A DNA stretch of 64,000 bases, taken from positions 801-64,800 of the forward strand of contig JBBSHJ010000004.1 in assembly GCA_038253135.1 (NCBI GenBank), read 5' to 3'. Below are positions 2,557 to 50,654 of this stretch, piece after piece. Below the pieces are notes generated by a model. It had not been told where the DNA came from. It made no database searches and saw nothing but the letters and a program-made list of their open reading frames with translations. The translations under genes were made by a program, and so were the position numbers. The DNA is from Mycobacteriales bacterium. GTDB lineage: Bacteria; Actinomycetota; Actinomycetes; Mycobacteriales; QHCD01. Numbering within the stretch: position 1 is the first letter of the stretch; each line of letters starts with the position of its first letter.

Positions 2557-4374
2557 GTGCCGGCGCAAGTGCTGGTGCCGCTCGTGATCGTCATTCCCTT
2601 GACGGTCAGCGCGCTCCTCGCCGCCATCGGACGATGGCTCCCTCGCCGGGTCACCGATAGCATCGCGACCGCGACCGCCGTCGTTCTCGTCGGCTTGACC
2701 GTGAGCCTGTTGATCGGTGCTCGCGGTCGTCGGCTCGTCGTGTGGTTCGGCGGGTGGCGCCCGTCGGCGCGCACCCACGAGAGCGTCGGGATCGTGTTTG
2801 TGGTGGACCGAATCGGCGCTGGCATTGCGGTTCTCGTCGCCACCCTGGTGCTCGCCGGACTGGTCTATTCCTGGCACTATTTCGAGTCGGTCGAGGCGCT
2901 CTATCACACGCTCGTCCTGCTCTTCGGCGCGGGAATGTGCGGCTTCGTGCTCAGCGGTGACCTCTTCGATATGTTCGTCTTCTTCGAGCTCATGGGCGCA
3001 GCGGCGTACGCGTTGACGGGTCATCAGATCGAAGAACCGCAGACCGTGCAGGGGGCGCTCCATTTCGGAGTGGTGAATTCGCTCGGCGCCTATTTCTCTC
3101 TGACCGGGATCGCTCTGCTCTATGCGCGCACCGGCGAGCTCGGGCTGGCTCAGATCAGGCACCAGCTGACTCCAGGTCATGTCGACGCTCTCGTCGTCGT
3201 CGGCTTCGTGTTCGTCATCACCGGTCTGCTGGTCAAGGCTGCCGTCGTCCCCTTTCATTTCTGGACGGCCGACGCAGAAGCGGTGGCACCGTCGCCGATC
3301 TGCGTCCTCTTCTCCGGCGCGATGGTGGTGCTCGGCGTCTACGGCGTCGCCCGCGTCTACTGGGTCGCGTTCTCGGGCGTACTGCCGTCGAGCGGGGTAC
3401 GCCGGGCCTTGCTCGTGCTCGGTGCCCTCACCGCGGTGCTCGGCGCCGTGATGTGTTTCGCGCAGCATCATCTCAAGCGCATGTTGGCCTACTCCACGAT
3501 CAGCCACGTCGGCCTCTTCATCCTGGGGCTCGCCACGCTGTCGCCGGACGGGCTGGCCGGCACCGCGCTGTACGTGCTCGGGCACGCCGGCGCCAAGGGA
3601 GCGCTCTTCCTCGCCGCCGGCATCGTGCTCAACCATTTCGGCACGGTCGATGAGCGCGCGCTCCACGGCGTCGGTCGGGCGCTGCCCGTCACCGGCTGCC
3701 TCTACGGGCTCGGCGGGCTCGCGCTGGCCGGGCTGCCACCCTTCGGCACCTTCGCCGGGAAGAGCGTCGCGGAGGACGCCCTCAGGACGGCCGGGCAGCC
3801 GTGGGCCATCGCGGTCTTCATGCTGAGCTCGGTGTTGACCGGAGGCGCCGTCCTGCGCGCCGCGCTACGCGTCTTCGCCGGACTCGGCGACCGGCCCGCA
3901 GAAGCCGACCGGTGGTCGGCCGAGCGCGCGGACAAGGAGGAGCCGGAAACCGGGCGGCGGTTGCTTCGCACCCCGCCGGCGATGCTCGTGCCCGCCGTCG
4001 TACTGCTGGCCGCCGCAGCCGCCATCGGGCTGGTGCCGGGTCTGGTCGGCGCGGTGGCCCGCTCGGCATCCGAGTTCGTCGACGGTCAAGGCTACGGCGC
4101 GGCCGCACTGCGGGGCGCGACCGGCGTGTCGATGGGCTCCGAGCACCTGACGGAATGGACGGCGAGCGGCCTCGCGCTGTCGCTGACGTCGGTGGCTCTG
4201 GCGACCGCATTGGCGGTGGTGGCGAGCTATCGCACGCGCGCGACCGTCCGTGCCGCCGCCATGCTGCGCGTCCCGATGCAGACGTTGCGCCGCATCCACG
4301 TCGGTCACATCGGGGACTCCGTCGCCTGGATGGTGGCCGGCGTCGTCGTGCTCGCCGCGCTCGTCGGGCTGTGA
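2557..4374 (+). CDS. mnhD: Mrp/Mnh antiporter subunit D (NuoL/M/N-like proton-conducting subunit)
   Basis: In-frame GTG 2557 one nt after the mnhC stop (track ORF starts 2446 inside mnhC). Motifs FFELMGAAAYAL, VVPFHFWTADA, MLAYSTISHVG. 605 aa polytopic. Confidence 0.8.
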   Translation: MPAQVLVPLVIVIPLTVSALLAAIGRWLPRRVTDSIATATAVVLVGLTVSLLIGARGRRLVVWFGGWRPSARTHESVGIVFVVDRIGAGIAVLVATLVLAGLVYSWHYFESVEALYHTLVLLFGAGMCGFVLSGDLFDMFVFFELMGAAAYALTGHQIEEPQTVQGALHFGVVNSLGAYFSLTGIALLYARTGELGLAQIRHQLTPGHVDALVVVGFVFVITGLLVKAAVVPFHFWTADAEAVAPSPICVLFSGAMVVLGVYGVARVYWVAFSGVLPSSGVRRALLVLGALTAVLGAVMCFAQHHLKRMLAYSTISHVGLFILGLATLSPDGLAGTALYVLGHAGAKGALFLAAGIVLNHFGTVDERALHGVGRALPVTGCLYGLGGLALAGLPPFGTFAGKSVAEDALRTAGQPWAIAVFMLSSVLTGGAVLRAALRVFAGLGDRPAEADRWSAERADKEEPETGRRLLRTPPAMLVPAVVLLAAAAAIGLVPGLVGAVARSASEFVDGQGYGAAALRGATGVSMGSEHLTEWTASGLALSLTSVALATALAVVASYRTRATVRAAAMLRVPMQTLRRIHVGHIGDSVAWMVAGVVVLAALVGL

Positions 4375-5343: not shown

Positions 5344-5859
5344 ATGGAGATCCCCCGCCTTTACCTCGACGTGGACGGCGTACTGAACCTCATCACGGAC
5401 CGGATACCGAGCCTTCGCCACCGCTCCTTTCGCACCGGAGCCTTCCGGATCACGTGGTACCCGCCGGCGATCGGCGCCCTCAAGTCCTGGCTGTCGGAGG
5501 ATCGTGTGAGCATCACCTGGCTCACGACCTGGGAGACGATGGCCAACGAGCGGATCGGCGCGCCGATGGGGCTGCCCGAGCTGCCAGTCGCGACCCGCGA
5601 CGACGCCCCGGCCGGGGACGGATACGGCCCGTGGTGGAAGCTGGCCACCGTGCAGCAGGCCTACGACGCGGGCGGGCCGGTGATCTGGGTGGATGACGAC
5701 ATCGCCGACACGCCGTCGGCGGCCCGCTGGATCGGGCGGACTGACCCCGGCCGGTTGCTCGCGATCTCCCCCGCCCCCGACGCGGGGCTGACGAAGAGCG
5801 AGCTCAAGACGATCGAGCGGTGGCTGGCCGAGCGCGAGGGGAGCGATGGGTCCGGCTGA
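5344..5859 (+). CDS. HAD-like domain protein
   Basis: In-frame ATG 5344 with GAGGAGG 5 nt upstream. LYLDVDGVLN (HAD motif I-like) and IWVDDD near the C-terminus. Confidence 0.65.
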   Translation: MEIPRLYLDVDGVLNLITDRIPSLRHRSFRTGAFRITWYPPAIGALKSWLSEDRVSITWLTTWETMANERIGAPMGLPELPVATRDDAPAGDGYGPWWKLATVQQAYDAGGPVIWVDDDIADTPSAARWIGRTDPGRLLAISPAPDAGLTKSELKTIERWLAEREGSDGSG

Positions 5860-33064: not shown

Positions 33065-33547
33065 ATGACGACCGAGACCGGCCTGACCGCTGCGGGCGCC
33101 AACCTGGCACCCGTGCCGGACGATCTGCGGCCCGACTACCCCACCCGGCTGCCGGGCCGCCTGGCCCGCATCATCGCCACACCACGGCCGATCACCGACG
33201 GCGAGCGGCGTACGGCGCGCGACTCGATCGTCGACGTCGTGTGCATGCTGATCGCCGCCGGCATCGGCGCGGTGCTCTGGAACGGCCTCCTGCCGCACTT
33301 CGGGTCCGGTCCGCTGCAATGGATCGATCTCGGGACGGGCGTGCTCTGCGTGGCCGTAACCTGGTTCCGGCGCCGCTGGCCGATCCCCATCGCCATCATC
33401 ACCACACTGGCCACGACCTTCTCCAGCGCGGCCGTGGGCGCGGGAATCGTGGCCATGTTCACCGTCGGCGTGCACCGGCGGTTCGGCCCGCTCGCCGCGG
33501 TGGCGGTGCTGGGCATCCTGTGCGGCGTCCCCTACGACACGATCGTC
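33065..33547 (+). pseudogene. Membrane sensor segment of a NarL-type histidine-kinase-like gene, 3' part missing
   Basis: ATG 33065. TM-rich WFRRRWPIPIAIITTLATTF..AMFTVGVHRR resembles HK N-termini. No H-box or ATPase follows. The frame runs stop-less through a repeat into the antisense of the sulfatase. Confidence 0.4.
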
Positions 33548-34905
33548 GCTGATCGGCTCGGCGCTGATCGGCTCGGCGCTGATCGGCTCGGCGACAGGGC
33601 GTCCGGCGGCCGGATCGGGGCGCCGTCGGGCTGGGGTATCGGCCCGCGCAGCAGTGGGTCAGCGGTGCGCCGCATCCAGGTCGTCAACCGGGCGTCGAGA
33701 TCGTGCCGGACGTCGGCGTACGCCGGATCGTCGGCCACGTCGTGCCGCTCCTGCGGGTCGAAGAGCAGGTCGTACAACTGCACCGCGGCGACCGGACGAT
33801 CGGCCCAGCCGGCCTCGACCCAGTGCTGCTTGCTCGCCGTGTCGTCGACGTTGGCCAGCGGCTTGTGCGACGGACCGCCCCAGTCCACGTCTGCCCCGTT
33901 CGACCGGATCAGCTTCCACCGTCCGGTGCGGATGGCGCGGTGCGGTTCGTACGCCGCGTGATAGTTGATCTCGGCGAAGATCTCCCGATCCGGATCGTCC
34001 GGCAGCGGCACCAGCGAGCGCCCCTGCAGCCAGGACGGGTGCGGTACGCCGGCCAGATCGCAGATCGTCGGGTAGAGATCGAGGTGCGACACCGGCGCAT
34101 CGACCACGCGGGCGCCGGTGAAGGGCTCTGGTCCGGCCAGGATCAGCAGCACGCCGATGCCGTGGTCGGTCAGCGTGCACTTCATGCCGGGCAATGCGAC
34201 GCCGTGATCGGTCGTGGCGATGACCAGCGTGCTCGGCGCCAGTCCCGTCTCGTCGAGGGTGCGAAGGACGCGTCCCACGGCGTCGTCCATGGCCGCGGCC
34301 GAGGCGATGAACGAGGCCATGTCCGCCCGCGTCGGGGGCGAGTCCGGCAGCGGCGGCGGCGGCGCGACGTACCGGCTTTCGACCGGCGGGTAGCCGAAGA
34401 CGCCAACGCCGGCGGGCGGATTGGCGACCGTGTGCGTCTCGGTGAACCCGACGGACAGGAAGAACGGTGCGTCATGCCCGCGGTGCAGGAAGTCCACCGC
34501 CGCCGCGCTGACCCCGGCAGCCCTCCCGTCACCGGTGTCCAGTTGCTCGTCGTACCCGATCGTCCGCGCCGCGGCCGGGCCTGCAGCGATGTGCTGCACA
34601 CCGGCGAGCACCGCGCGGTAGCCGCCCGCGCGCAGCGGATGGATGACGTGCTGCCCGAAATCGTTGAGGCGGAAGCCGAAATGCGCCAGGCCGAGCATCC
34701 CCGACTGGTGCGGCCACTGCCCGGTGAGCAGCGCGGCGCGGCTCGGCGAGCAGGTCGGCGCCGCCGAGAACGCCTGCCGGAACAGGACACCGCGCTCGGC
34801 CAGGCCCTGCAGCGCCGGGGTCGGCACGGCGTGGCCATAGGGCTGGACGTAACGGCCGCTGTCGTGCGTGTGGATATAGATGATGTTGGGTGGCTGCCCG
34901 GTCAT
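33532..34905 (-). CDS. Cys-type sulfatase
   Basis: ATG 34905 with GGGAGG 9 nt upstream. IIYIHTHDSG, PTCSPSRAALLTGQ (CxPxR formylglycine motif). Confidence 0.85.
   Translation of the reverse strand: MTGQPPNIIYIHTHDSGRYVQPYGHAVPTPALQGLAERGVLFRQAFSAAPTCSPSRAALLTGQWPHQSGMLGLAHFGFRLNDFGQHVIHPLRAGGYRAVLAGVQHIAAGPAAARTIGYDEQLDTGDGRAAGVSAAAVDFLHRGHDAPFFLSVGFTETHTVANPPAGVGVFGYPPVESRYVAPPPPLPDSPPTRADMASFIASAAAMDDAVGRVLRTLDETGLAPSTLVIATTDHGVALPGMKCTLTDHGIGVLLILAGPEPFTGARVVDAPVSHLDLYPTICDLAGVPHPSWLQGRSLVPLPDDPDREIFAEINYHAAYEPHRAIRTGRWKLIRSNGADVDWGGPSHKPLANVDDTASKQHWVEAGWADRPVAAVQLYDLLFDPQERHDVADDPAYADVRHDLDARLTTWMRRTADPLLRGPIPQPDGAPIRPPDALSPSRSAPSRSAPSRSATIVS
33548..33592. repeat. Perfect 3 x 15-bp tandem repeat GCTGATCGGCTCGGC
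   Basis: Counted directly. Encodes ADRLG x3 on plus and SAPSR x3 in the C-terminal tail of the minus-strand sulfatase. Confidence 0.95.
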
Positions 34906-35047: not shown

Positions 35048-36448
<1,401 letters not shown>

Positions 36449-46663: not shown

Positions 46664-48628
46664 CTACGACGTCCACGCCCGCCACAGGGCGGCGTACTCC
46701 CCGTCGAGCGTGAGCAGCTCGTCGTGGCTGCCGAGCTCGGCGATCCGGCCGTCGATCACGACCGCGATCCGATCCGCGTCGTGCGCGGTGTGCAGCCGGT
46801 GCGCGATCGCGACGACCGTGCGCCCGGTGAGCAACGCGTTCATCGAGCCCTCGAGGTGCCGGGCCGTGCGCGGGTCGATCAGCGACGTCGCCTCGTCCAG
46901 CACGAGGGTGTGCGGATCGGCGATGATCAGCCGGGCCAGGGCGATCTGCTGGGCCTGCGCGGGAGTCAGCGCGGTGTTGCCGGCGCCCAGCTTCGTGCCG
47001 AGCCCGTCGGGCAGCCGGGAGACCCAGTCCCAGGCGTCGACCGCGGCCAGCGCCGACTGCACGACGCTGTCATCGGAGTCCTCCCGGGCCAGGATGATGT
47101 TGTCGCGCACCGAGCCGACGAAGACGTGCTGCTCCTGCGTGACCAGCGCGACCTCGGTCCGCAGCACCGGCAGCGGCAGCGCGACCAGGTCGATGCTGCC
47201 GACGGTGACCGAGCCGGTCCTCGGTCCGTTGATCCCCGCCAGCAGCCGACCCAGCGTCGACTTGCCGGAGCCGGACGGCCCGACGATGGCCAGCCGCTCG
47301 CCGACCCTGAGATCCATGTCGATCCCATGCAGGACATCGTGCCCCTCCCGGTAGGCGAATCGCAGGTCCGATCCGACGAGGTGCACGCCCTGCGGATCCT
47401 CGTCCTGCGGCTCGCGGTCCGGCGGGATCGTCGCGATCCCGAGCAGCCGCGACGTCGATGCGGCGCCCACCTGCAACCGGTCGACGGTCGACACGAAGAG
47501 ATCGAGCGGGCCGAAGAGGCCCTCGATGTAGAGCACGGCGGCGGTGATCTGTCCGAGGCTGACCCAGCCCTTGCCGTAGGCGTAAGCGCCGAGCAGGACC
47601 GTCACACCGCGGGGCGCGTTGAAGGCCACGTCCATGACGATGAACAGCAGATTGCGCAGCGACATCGTGTAACGCTCGGCCTGCGCGGACACTGCGATGT
47701 CGTCGTCGTTACGGCCGATCCGCCGGTCCTGCAGGCCGAGCGCCTCGACCGTGCGAGCGCCCTCGACGGTCTCGGTCATCGTCGTGTTGATGCGCGAGTA
47801 GGTGCCGCCCTCGGTGATGTAGCCCTTCGGGGCGCGGGCGAGGTAGCGCCTGATCTGCAGCGCCGCGAGCGCGACGAGGACGAGCGAGGGTACGGCGAGG
47901 ATCGGCGAGTTGATGACGAGCGCGACAAACGTGAGGACAACGGTCAGCCCGGAGATGATCGCCTGCGGCATCGCCCACTGCACCGAGGCGCTCATCGTCC
48001 CAACGTCACGGGTGATACGGGTGACGAGGTCGCCCGTGCTGGCCCGCTCGACCGTGCCGAGCGGGAGCCGCAGGACCGCGCGCACGACGTACTCCCTGGC
48101 GGCGGCAAGCAGGTCCTGGCCGAACATCGTCGAGCTCGCGTTGGCCGCGAAGGTCAGGGCGCTCTGCACGATCACGATGCCGCTGACCGCCAGCGCGAGC
48201 GCGTTGACGTGGCTCATGACCGTGCCGCCGCCGGCGGTCGAATTCACCAACGAGCCGAGCAGGCGCGGCACGAAGAGACCGGACACGGCGGCCAGCACGT
48301 TGAGCACGATGAGCAGGGCCAGGCCGCGCCTGCGGTCCCCTATCAGCCCGCGCATGAAGGACACGACCGCGGTGTTGTCGGCGACCGGCAGGCCGTTCTC
48401 CGGATCGCGCGAGGCCGCGAAATAGCGGTTGGCGCGCTCGGCCCGGAGCAGGTGGCGGCGATGCCAGGCGCCGATGCGTTCGCGCACCGACCCCGACGTC
48501 GGTGGGATCAGCTCCGGTGGCACGGCCGGCTCGACGGCCGGCCCGTCGTCGCGCCACGTGGCCGCCGACCCCTCGAAGAGCTCGTCCGCCATGGCCGCGC
48601 CGCGCGCGTGGTCGACGTCGGTGCTCAT
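46664..48628 (-). CDS. ABC exporter fused permease/ATPase, canonical Walker A/B, degenerate signature
   Basis: ATG 48628 with GGAGG 4 nt upstream. GPSGSGKST, LVLDEATS. The signature position reads LTPAQAQ instead of LSGGQ. Confidence 0.85.
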   Translation of the reverse strand: MSTDVDHARGAAMADELFEGSAATWRDDGPAVEPAVPPELIPPTSGSVRERIGAWHRRHLLRAERANRYFAASRDPENGLPVADNTAVVSFMRGLIGDRRRGLALLIVLNVLAAVSGLFVPRLLGSLVNSTAGGGTVMSHVNALALAVSGIVIVQSALTFAANASSTMFGQDLLAAAREYVVRAVLRLPLGTVERASTGDLVTRITRDVGTMSASVQWAMPQAIISGLTVVLTFVALVINSPILAVPSLVLVALAALQIRRYLARAPKGYITEGGTYSRINTTMTETVEGARTVEALGLQDRRIGRNDDDIAVSAQAERYTMSLRNLLFIVMDVAFNAPRGVTVLLGAYAYGKGWVSLGQITAAVLYIEGLFGPLDLFVSTVDRLQVGAASTSRLLGIATIPPDREPQDEDPQGVHLVGSDLRFAYREGHDVLHGIDMDLRVGERLAIVGPSGSGKSTLGRLLAGINGPRTGSVTVGSIDLVALPLPVLRTEVALVTQEQHVFVGSVRDNIILAREDSDDSVVQSALAAVDAWDWVSRLPDGLGTKLGAGNTALTPAQAQQIALARLIIADPHTLVLDEATSLIDPRTARHLEGSMNALLTGRTVVAIAHRLHTAHDADRIAVVIDGRIAELGSHDELLTLDGEYAALWRAWTS

Positions 48629-48629
48629 A

Positions 48630-48785
48630 CCGCCTCCGCGGAAAAGCGTGCGTCGGCGGTGCCCATAGCCGCCTCCGCGGAAAAGCATGCGTCGGCGGTG
48701 CCCATAGCCGCCTCCGCGGAAAAGCGTGCGTCGGCGGTGCCCATAGCCGCCTCCGCGGAAAAGCATGCGTCGGCGGTGCTCACGC
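48630..48785. repeat. 4 x 39-bp tandem repeat (CCGCCTCCGCGGAAAAGC[G/A]TGCGTCGGCGGTGCCCATAG)
   Basis: Counted directly. Units at 48630, 48669, 48708 and 48747 (last unit diverges at its end). G/A alternates at unit position 19. Fills the whole gap between the two ABC genes. Confidence 0.95.
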
Positions 48786-50654
48786 GGGGGACCCCTCATC
48801 GGGAGCGTCGAGGTTGCGCACCACGACGGAGCGGTACGCCGGGTCGTCGCGCAGCAGTTCGTCGTGCGTGCCGTCGGCAGCCGCCCGGCCACCGTCGAGC
48901 AGGACGATCCGGTCGGCGTGATGCAGCAGCAGCGGCGAAACCGACATCACGATCGTCGTACGACCGCGCCGGTACCCCGCCAGCCGCGCCGCGATCATGG
49001 CCTCGGTGTGCGCGTCGACGGCCGACGTCGGCTCGACCAACACCAGCACCTCGGGGTCCCGCGCCAGCGCCCGGGCCAGCACCAGCCGTTGCCGCTGACC
49101 GCCGGACAGGCCGCGGCCCCGCTCGTCGATGCGGCCCTGCCAGCCACCGGGCATCGCCTCGAAGACGTCCTCGGCCGCGGCCGTGTGCAGCGCCGCCTCG
49201 GCCTGCCGGCGGGTGAGGATGCCGTGCGGGTCGACGAGGTCCTGCAACGTGCCGGAGAAGACCATCGCACCGGTGTCGGAGACCACGATCTGCTCGCGTA
49301 CGTCGCGCAGCGCGGCATCGGCGAGGTCGACACCGCCGACCCGCACCCCCCACGGACCGGCCGCGAGCGCCTCGTCCGCTCGGGCGATTTCCGCTTGCGC
49401 GGCAAGGCGCTTCTCGTGTTCACGCTTGGCGGCCGCGCCGGCGACCTTGTCGTCGACTGCGGGCGCGGAGTGCGCGGCCGGGGGGAGGTAGCGCCCGACC
49501 CGGTCGGCGAGCGCGGCCGTCTCGTCTGGCGCGGCGCTCACCACCATCGTCAGCTCACCCGGCTGCGCGACGAAGCCGGTGGCCTCGTCCGTGATGACCG
49601 CCCCGGTAGGCAGCGGGCGTGGCTGCTGCGGGTCGTGCCACGGCGGTGTGAGCCCGAGCGCGGCGATCGCCTTGCGGGCCGAGACCATGCCGCGGGTCCA
49701 TTTCTGGAAGAACTGGAAGAAGTTGGTCACCGGGCCGGTCAGGAACATGGCGTAGCCCAGCAACGCCACCAGCTGGCCGGTGGAGATCCGGCCGTGGAGC
49801 ACGTCCCGGGCGCCGAGCCACATCAGCAGGACCAGAAAGATCCCCGGCAGCAGGACCGCGACGCCGTCGGTGATGGACTGCCAGATGCCGGCGGCCACGC
49901 CGGCCGAGCGCACCCGTTGCGACTGGCCGGCGTAGTTGCGGCCGAACGTCGACTCGCCGCCGATGCCGCGCAGGATCCGCAGGCCCGCGACGATGTCCGT
50001 GGCCATTCCGGTCAGCTCGGAGTTGCGGCTGCGCTCGACCGCCTGGCGGCGCTCCATCGGCTTGAGCAGCGGAAAGGCCATCGCCACCAGCAGCGGCGGG
50101 CCGACCAGCACGAGCAGGCCGAGCTTGACCGACGTACCGAGCACGATCGCGCTCACGGTCAGGAAGGCGACCAGGGACGCCAGCCCGCGGCCGGTCACCT
50201 CGATCAGCGACCCGAAGGTGTCCGAGTCCGACGACGAGACGCTCAGGACCTCACCGGTCGGCAGCCGCCGCCCCTGGATGTGGCCGAGCTGCGCGGTCTT
50301 GCGGTTGACCAGCTTCGTCGTGCCGTAGAGGGCGATCAGCCAGCCGCGCACGGCCATGGTGTGGAAGAGCATGCCGCACATCGCGCCGGCCATCGTCACG
50401 ATGAGCAGCGCCAGACCCCAGAAGAGCGTGCCCGACGTGGAGCCGGGCAGGATCCCCTTGTCGATCGCCTTGCCGAGCAGGAAGGGACCCACCGTCGGCG
50501 GGATATACCAAAGGACACCGGCAACCGCGTTGCCGGTGAGCACGTCGGCCTGATCGCGCAGCAACCAACGGAGAAACGCACCCGGCGTACGGGTATCAGG
50601 CTCTGCGGTGGCGGATGCGCTGTAGGCGTCGACTACAGGAGGGAAGTCGCGCAT
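48780..50654 (-). CDS. ABC exporter fused permease/ATPase, degenerate Walker A, canonical signature
   Basis: ATG 50654 (MRDFPPVVD...). LSGGQRQR present. The Walker A position reads [10 protein letters not shown], and Walker B reads LVLVEPTS. ~45-aa insertion after the degenerate P-loop. Confidence 0.85.

Follow-up and report, generated by a model that had tools for sequence, protein, structure and literature searches.

The stretch of DNA analysed here, referred to as the window, is a 64,000-nt segment of contig JBBSHJ010000004.1 from a Mycobacteriales bacterium (assembly GCA_038253135.1), with a G+C content of 70.6%. Its minus strand carries two genes for ABCB-type half-transporters (ABC, ATP-binding cassette), the upstream one encoding 624 aa (48780..50654, minus strand; stop codon TGA at 48782-48780) and the downstream one 654 aa (46664..48628, minus strand; start codon ATG at 48628). 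The gap between the two genes is filled by four head-to-tail repeat units of 39, 39, 39 and 38 nt (48629-48783, minus strand). Tandem Repeats Finder (TRF) reported this array as by far the strongest repeat of the window, at 48619-48779, with a period of 39, 4.2 copies, 95% matches and a score of 294. The 39-mer named in the original prediction for this locus, GGAGGCGGCTATGGGCACCGCCGACGCAYGCTTTTCCGC, occurred exactly 3 times in the window and was absent from 100 dinucleotide shuffles.

Read on the minus strand from 48783, the array has the register GTGAGCACCGCCGACGCATGCTTTTCCGCGGAGGCGGCT / ATGGGC...C...GGCGGCT / ATGGGC...T...GGCGGCT / ATGGGC...C...GGCGGT / ATGAGCACCGACGTC... Unit 1 (48745..48783, minus strand, 39 nt, GTGAGCACCGCCGACGCATGCTTTTCCGCGGAGGCGGCT) and unit 3 (48667..48705, minus strand, 39 nt) are T variants, and unit 2 (48706..48744, minus strand, 39 nt, ATGGGCACCGCCGACGCACGCTTTTCCGCGGAGGCGGCT) and unit 4 (48629..48666, minus strand, 38 nt) are C variants; the three 39-nt units were delimited by TRF and by sequence, units 2 and 3 also by the count of the 39-mer. 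Unit 4, which has the canonical length of the family described below, terminates in GGAGGCGGT immediately 5′ of the transporter ATG. Its junction reads GGCGG-TATGA where GGCGGCTATGG would stand, and it is the 38-nt form that creates the terminal ATGA overlap. The real start of the downstream gene resembles a truncated fifth copy (ATGAGCACCGAC). The original prediction had described the upstream stop, the downstream ATG, a 151-nt gap, an alternation of C and T (G and A on the plus strand), three translations and a degenerate fifth copy at the real gene start (ATGAGCACCGACGTC), all of which agreed with the sequence; its count of four 39-bp units held for three of them, the last being 38 nt long.

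A short open reading frame (sORF) of 52 codons runs through the array (48625..48783, minus strand). Its GTG start lies on the upstream stop codon, forming a GTGA overlap (48780..48783, minus strand) that is presumed to be the insertion site, orthologous empty junctions being RTGA or an 11-nt overlap, and its TGA lies on the downstream ATG, forming an ATGA overlap (48628-48625). A 39-codon sORF had been predicted earlier at 48744..48625; the overlap of its TGA with the transporter ATG was borne out, but the sORF is longer, beginning at GTG 48783. The translation contains a (V/M) start, (MGTADA[R/C]FSAEAA)x2 and then MGTADARFSAEAV*, and family members elsewhere use the same reading frame. All three minus-strand frames are open through the array. 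Owing to one base in excess of the canonical length, three of the units (39 nt) are joined in a single long sORF, and the terminal 38-nt unit returns this fused sORF onto the transporter ATG. The last unit carries a Shine-Dalgarno sequence, GGAGG, 4 nt 5′ of ATG 48628 (48633..48637, minus strand), and the equivalent copies at 48672-48676, 48711-48715 and 48750-48754 (minus strand) each stand 5 nt 5′ of an in-frame ATG of the sORF.

Related species lack the array. In 7 of them (L001-L005, L116 and L117; proteins 78-82% identical), the ABC junction contains no element, the two genes either sharing 4 or 11 nt or standing 5 nt apart. The empty junction of L004 reads ...ggaaggaggcatcgGTGAGCACTGATCTG, and a junction of this kind, ...cccccgcGTGAGCACCGACGTCGAC (V-S-T-D-V-D), is also predicted for the window once the array is removed. 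These empty orthologous junctions indicate that the array is a lineage-specific insertion into a stop/start overlap. The filled site of the window is flanked by the direct repeat RTGAGCACCG. A conspecific metagenome-assembled genome (MAG), L114 (GCA_051003115.1), has 3 units (T, C, T) compared with 4 in the window, its protein being identical at 653/654 positions and its flanks 99.6% identical; the last unit is again 38 nt long, and GTGA and ATGA are both kept. The copy-number polymorphism that had been predicted was thus observed, between two metagenome assemblies. The middle unit of L114 (3924-3962) has a private GGAGG>GGCGG change, by which the Shine-Dalgarno sequence is destroyed and a G.A mismatch in a predicted hairpin becomes a G-C pair.

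Whether the repeat belongs to a dispersed family, a check proposed with the original prediction, was answered by sequence scans, which found it in two Amycolatopsis genomes, in an Actinomycetota MAG and at about 30 distinct loci in soil metagenomes. Scanning 185,579 species-representative GTDB genomes with the 18-mer GCTTTTCCGCGGAGGCGG gave 65 single matches, comprising 62 chance matches and 3 real ones. In Amycolatopsis sp. NPDC051371 (L045), an array of 39 nt x3.2 (97% identity) starts with cggATGAGCACCGCCGACGCACGCTTTTCC on the stop codon of a urea-carboxylase-like gene and reads in frame into an allophanate hydrolase as MSTADARFSAEAASNTADALFSAEAA... In Amycolatopsis sp. CA-126428 (L068, 824-903), a CobU-like P-loop gene (MTVPNAASAEKPTSAGPHAASAKKRPSAG...) contains 2 diverged units, reversed in orientation, within the sequence coding for its N-terminus; L105 is the same locus in a related genome, and the element is evidently tolerated there as coding sequence on the opposite strand. 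The Actinomycetota MAG (L039) has 2 element copies, which were recovered by an nhmmer profile, a 1-nt indel having disrupted the comparison of the flanks. These copies (2290-2460 and 5660-5830) lie within near-identical segments of approximately 170 nt that end two different ORFs (…ARS*), and the shared segment extends approximately 60 nt past the element; it looks like a larger duplicated module, i.e. a paralogous duplication, rather than two independent insertions.

Metagenomes were scanned with the pattern CGCCGA-N7-TTYTYCGCGGAGGCGG, which returned 43 contigs. The element was present on about 34 of the 43, with G+C contents of 67-75%, representing about 30 distinct loci; the remaining 8-9 or so were chance matches on lower-GC contigs without the TGAC context (L082, L084, L088, L096, L100, L104, L108, L110 and probably L089). 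Metagenome and genome loci together gave 44 distinct units, and a core of 29-33 nt is shared by about 30 unrelated junctions in other organisms. Two separate copies were found on each of the contigs L083 (2.4 kb apart), L085 and L112. On L085 (240-390), the two copies are 113 nt apart and flank a short open frame that runs from the ATG of the first element to the TGA-on-ATG of the second, forming a longer composite relay ORF. The named hosts are Amycolatopsis sp. NPDC051371 and CA-126428, an uncultured Actinomycetota MAG and two MAGs labelled Mycobacteriales bacterium, with no Mycobacterium among them; the ABC proteins of the latter two MAGs are closest to proteins of Mycobacteriales and Nocardioides MAGs. 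No match to the element was obtained in the IMG/VR viral contigs or by blastn against the PLSDB plasmids, and an E-value-mode scan of 4 element-bearing loci against Rfam 15 gave tRNAs and spurious matches only. Searches of the papers open to searching, by sequence, peptide and keywords, found no description of the element, and the family is apparently undescribed so far.

Comparison of the units gave the consensus tgATGACCGCCGACGTACTCTTCTCCGCGGAGGCGGCATC|ATGACC and a second subtype of equal total length, ATGAGCACCGCC...GGCGGC|ATGAGC, to which the units of the window belong. A canonical 38-nt unit has its first codon (ATG or GTG) on the preceding TGA stop codon; 13 sense codons, this one included (M-T/S-A-D-A/V-L-F-S-A-E-A-A-x), lead to a TGA on the next ATG, with GGAGG standing about 4-8 nt 5′ of the regenerated start codon. 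At about 26 of the about 30 loci, the element is abutted by long ORFs on both sides, the upstream one ending on RTGA at the 5′ edge and the downstream one beginning with the regenerated RTGA at the 3′ edge; L068/L105 (reverse orientation), L076 and L086 are exceptions to this co-oriented layout. Among 33 measurable RTGA-bounded units, 30 are 3n-1 nt long (38 nt x25, 41 nt x4 and 35 nt x1), which means that these length variants differ by whole codons. Most loci have a single copy. Tandem arrays of 2, 3 and 4 units with a period of 38 occur in L073, L092/L107, L109, L079 and L103, where the units form a chain of coupled mini-ORFs; 39-nt variants fusing into one ORF are present in the window, L045, L094 and L068/L105, and 13 units without a regenerated start form in-frame N-terminal tags (e.g. 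L072, L074 and L097).

The element has an imperfect inverted repeat, matching at 9/12 positions (CCGCCGACG / CGCGGAGGCGG), and is flanked by direct repeats of 3-16 nt that always include TGA. A fixed-length target-site duplication was considered and rejected, given this range of lengths. In some cases, the 3′ tail copies host sequence located 5′ of the original start, over 14 nt in L106 and 12 nt in L078. At about 3258-3315 (minus strand) of L078, which is the same locus as L102, a degenerate unit with an internal duplication of approximately 10 nt (CCGCGGCCGCGGCTCCGCGG) lies 5′ of a canonical unit; the CCGCGG palindrome may be a slippage hotspot.

According to Pfam, the genes downstream of the element are unrelated to each other, including nuoH, nuoJ, two nuoM/N-type genes, a sugar-ABC permease, four ABC ATPases, a PfkB kinase, D-Ala-D-Ala ligase (Ddl), MoaE, a PIN toxin, allophanate hydrolase, a pyridine-nucleotide disulphide oxidoreductase and a PAPS-reductase-family protein. 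The starts of the nuo subunit genes (nuoH, nuoJ and the two of the nuoM/N type) carry the element on 4 contigs (L074, L078/L102, L095 and L097). The nuo operon may be a recurrent target or may merely be rich in RTGA overlaps.

Fold prediction, the evidence of which is weak, gave a hairpin in the last unit of the window (CCGCC-GA-CG / loop / CG-GA-GGCGG; 48630..48659, minus strand) that would bury the GGAGG. The same hairpin was predicted in every unit and variant, at -14 to -17 kcal/mol per unit and with z-scores of -0.3 to -2.7 against shuffles. The predicted fold of the whole array was no more stable than that of shuffles (z -0.47).

The repeat is most probably a tandem array with a variable number of copies of a small interspersed element, which is of the mycobacterial interspersed repetitive unit (MIRU) type and has a canonical unit of 38 nt. 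As the element starts on a stop codon and stops on a regenerated start codon, insertion at a stop/start overlap would rebuild the overlap and leave the operon translationally coupled. We infer that, in the window, an element entered the GTGA junction between the half-transporter genes, a pair that overlaps in related species, and expanded to 4 units. Judging from the geometry, ribosomes finishing the upstream gene would re-initiate at GTG 48783; alternatively, they may load at the three internal GGAGG-N5-ATG sites, all of which are in the sORF frame. Translation of the sORF would melt the hairpin otherwise occluding the last GGAGG, and the ribosomes would then terminate on ATGA and re-initiate at the downstream gene (48628). 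Owing to such a relay through the array, a gene pair normally dependent on overlap coupling would hardly be affected by the insertion. Units may be gained and lost by slippage, by unequal recombination or by re-insertion into the target regenerated by each unit; with RTGA(C) recreated at the 3′ end of every unit, arrays could, as a speculation, grow by re-insertion as well as by slippage. The function as a translational relay and the mobility of the element are both putative.

Several other explanations of the array were considered. It might have arisen by purely local slipped-strand duplication of the gene's own translation-initiation region, with no element family involved, and the partial fifth copy at the real gene start (ATGAGCACCGAC), the beginning of unit 1 (GTGAGCACCG), which is like the orthologous start in L004, and the lack of a second copy in the 64-kb window, even at 8 mismatches in 29 nt or by nhmmer profile, would all fit such an event. 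However, the same 29-33-nt core stands at about 30 unrelated junctions, where Pfam identifies different genes rather than one ABC junction, and arrays elsewhere (L045 and L103) begin with the identical TGAGCACCGCCGACGCA, which leaves hardly any room for local duplication. Equally hard to credit is an assembly artefact, in which a metagenome assembler mis-expanded a short tandem repeat: the contig comes from a MAG, the 156-nt array is near short-read length and the conspecific MAG differs in unit number, yet two independent assemblies show ordered alternating variants with intact GTGA and ATGA ends, L114 has its private substitution, and arrays of 2-4 units occur in many other assemblies.

The repeat could also be an N-terminal extension of the downstream transporter, either as the (M/T)LFRGGGYGHRRR modules that the original prediction had offered as one option or as a fused TADA-FSAEAA repeat. 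The transporter frame is indeed open through the array, T-variant units supply in-frame ATGs, and some family loci are fused in frame, as in L045. These ATGs (gcATGctt) are about 25 nt from the nearest GGAGG, which is not an initiation distance; 48628 is the start chosen by the gene caller and matched by the N-termini of all orthologues, none of which has such an extension; and the TADA-FSAEAA frame used by the family is here out of the transporter frame and stops on the transporter ATG. We consider an extension very improbable, and the modules proposed earlier were not upheld. Somewhat less improbable, but still unlikely, is that the array acts mainly as an RNA structure, with one hairpin per unit sequestering the Shine-Dalgarno sequence and throttling or conditioning downstream translation, whether or not the sORF is translated. 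The prediction of the same hairpin in every variant and the G-C pair gained in the middle unit of L114 are in its favour; the weak z-scores, a whole-array fold no better than shuffles and the absence of an Rfam match are against it, and an element acting purely as RNA would have no use for the 3n-1 rule and the ATGA overlaps, both of which concern the coding frame. Such a structure is compatible with the interspersed-element explanation as a sub-mechanism.

Some of the observations weigh against the explanation as an interspersed relay element. The difference of 3 and 4 units comes from two MAG assemblies, in which short tandem repeats can be miscounted. Translation of the sORF and the relay are suggested by geometry, and the predicted hairpin is only marginally more stable than shuffles. 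Search patterns fixed most core positions, including the stem, so that the conservation of GGAGG and the stem is partly ascertainment; GGAGGCGG, for example, is invariant in the family, but it was demanded by the search pattern. The window shows one locus in 64 kb, and more than one copy in a genome was seen on a few contigs. The bias to 3n-1 lengths could stem in part from copying of one 38-nt master, although the 35- and 41-nt variants speak for frame selection. The variable length of the direct repeats (3-16 nt) argues against a classical fixed target-site duplication. Finally, in-frame N-terminal fusions or reverse orientation at L045, L072, L074, L097 and L068/L105 indicate that the relay is not universal.

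MIRUs are repeats of 40-100 nt that insert at start codons, with an internal ORF coupled to the target gene at -4 nt; polycistronic transcription, tetranucleotide direct repeats, imperfect terminal inverted repeats and empty sites in M. leprae have been described for them (PMC12548453, PMC3184786, both citing Supply et al. 1997), and M. tuberculosis has about 40-50 copies (PMC3184786). The senX3-regX3 locus of M. tuberculosis (L115, CP012506.2), found by a RegX3 query, contains 3.1 MIRU units of 77 nt (3n-1), each reading ATGACCTGCGCCGACGACG...CGCTTGCGGGGGAGAGTGGCGCTG|ATGACC and extending from one ATGACC to the following one, with a tail rich in GGAG. The MIRU and the 38-nt element have in common an intercistronic location in operons in gene orientation, an sORF overlapping the upstream stop and the downstream start (-4), a 3n-1 length (77 nt in senX3-regX3 and 38 nt here) and a Shine-Dalgarno-like tail, GGAG, that precedes the regenerated ATGACC. 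Both vary in tandem copy number, occur at sites that are filled in some relatives and empty in others, and have imperfect terminal inverted repeats and short flanking direct repeats. The element differs in being half the size or less (38 nt vs 53-77+ nt), in its hosts, which are Amycolatopsis and uncultured soil Mycobacteriales/Actinomycetota instead of Mycobacterium, and in that the interior units of the window are a 39-nt in-frame derivative.

The element was aligned globally, at a low cost for a long internal gap, with the 77/78-nt units of senX3-regX3, which gave z-scores of 1.5-3.1 (p 0.005-0.08) against shuffles; ATGAC, CGCCGACG, CTT and GCGGAGG are the blocks common to both. This is suggestive, though not proof, of the 38-nt element being a deletion-derivative relative of the MIRU, since Shine-Dalgarno and Met-Thr start contexts are functionally constrained. 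In architecture, the element matches the MIRU feature for feature, while strict MIRU membership (homology, Mycobacterium host) is not established. The original prediction of a MIRU-like intercistronic repeat with a coupled sORF is accordingly supported as far as architecture is concerned, by the stop/start overlaps on both sides, the empty sites and the M. tuberculosis MIRU with the same ATGA-to-ATGA 3n-1 layout. Publicly available gene calls give M. tuberculosis RegX3 a length of 245-347 aa, compared with 227 aa for the true protein (L115, 1855-2093, and RegX3 protein matches). Gene callers apparently read through the senX3-regX3 MIRUs, and the 38-nt family presents the same annotation hazard.

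Other small repeats resemble the element in part. Repetitive extragenic palindromic sequences (REPs) and bacterial interspersed mosaic elements (BIMEs) are similar in size (about 35 nt), in their imperfect palindrome and in being interspersed and sometimes clustered. REPs are extragenic, typically located after gene 3′ ends or between convergent genes and often in inverted pairs, and are not known to carry a start codon, Shine-Dalgarno sequence or sORF or to follow a frame rule. The 38-nt elements, in contrast, sit on start codons in gene orientation, carry a Shine-Dalgarno sequence plus ATG and follow the 3n-1 rule, and are thus not REPs or BIMEs. Like miniature inverted-repeat transposable elements (MITEs) and the IS200/IS605-derived palindrome-associated transposable elements (PATEs), the element is short and non-autonomous with imperfect terminal inverted repeats; it always stands behind RTGA[C] and recreates this sequence at its 3′ end, reminiscent of insertion at a specific target with no duplication of fixed length. 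It is far shorter than typical MITEs, its direct repeats of 3-16 nt are not fixed and no associated transposase was identified; it does not qualify as a MITE, and a link to MITEs or PATEs is speculative. Rickettsia palindromic elements (RPEs) are also short interspersed repeats tolerated in coding regions when in frame, as seen here in L045, L072, L074 and L097. RPEs are about 100-150 nt long and insert within ORFs, and are not known to rebuild stop/start overlaps or to carry a Shine-Dalgarno sequence plus ATG.

A tentative but serious possibility is that the repeats are the first recognised members of a hitherto undescribed family of mobile elements that target start codons, are minimal in size (38 nt) and occur in non-mycobacterial soil actinomycetes. 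The elements may be distant deletion-derivatives of MIRUs, each unit being a self-contained relay that regenerates its own target. Regeneration of the insertion target at the 3′ end of each unit would explain both the harmlessness of the elements and their tendency to form tandem arrays. MIRUs serve worldwide as markers for genotyping tuberculosis. They are regarded as a mycobacterial peculiarity, and it is still unclear where they come from, how they spread and how they affect expression. That a much smaller family outside Mycobacterium follows the same logic of stop/start overlaps suggests a general actinobacterial strategy of relay insertion or an old element lineage. If the repeats are indeed such mobile elements, the small size of the element and its culturable Amycolatopsis hosts could make MIRU mobilisation and termination-reinitiation coupling experimentally tractable. 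The family would be a minimal natural module for such coupling, its natural variants being sORFs in series (38 nt), fused sORFs (39 nt) and in-frame fusions. It also offers variable-number tandem repeat markers for environmental actinomycetes, and explains a class of N-terminal mis-annotations in which gene callers read through such arrays.

Both genes flanking the array encode proteins with Pfam ABC_membrane and ABC_tran matches. In the upstream half-transporter, the ABC_tran match is partial, being restricted to profile positions 51-137 (33 bits), which points to a degenerate nucleotide-binding site, a frequent trait of heterodimeric ABC exporters. The start of this gene was set at ATG 50654 (624 aa) and not at that of the 830-aa maximal ORF, judging from the conspecific gene call in L114. 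For the downstream half-transporter, start 48628 is also used by an identical 654-aa database protein (P0001), and orthologue N-termini align from the same start. Matches of the half-transporters in the PDB include ABCB1 and the bacterial heterodimeric exporters TM287/288, TmrAB and BmrCD. The two proteins are presumably the halves of a heterodimeric ABC exporter needed in equal amounts, and as the array lies between them, its copy number could alter the subunit balance. Exact look-up of the 52-aa sORF product and of P0001 in a contig index gave no match. A chimeric query of 5 open-frame array translations against 5.8 billion proteins gave 1 irrelevant weak match and was uninformative on the family, as low-complexity frames probably swamped the word filter.

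Two further tandem repeats were observed in the window, one at 33543-33608 with a 15-nt period (x3.4, 97% identity) and one at 35259-35311 with a 21-nt period (x2.5, 96% identity). Both periods are multiples of 3, and these are probably in-frame coding repeats.

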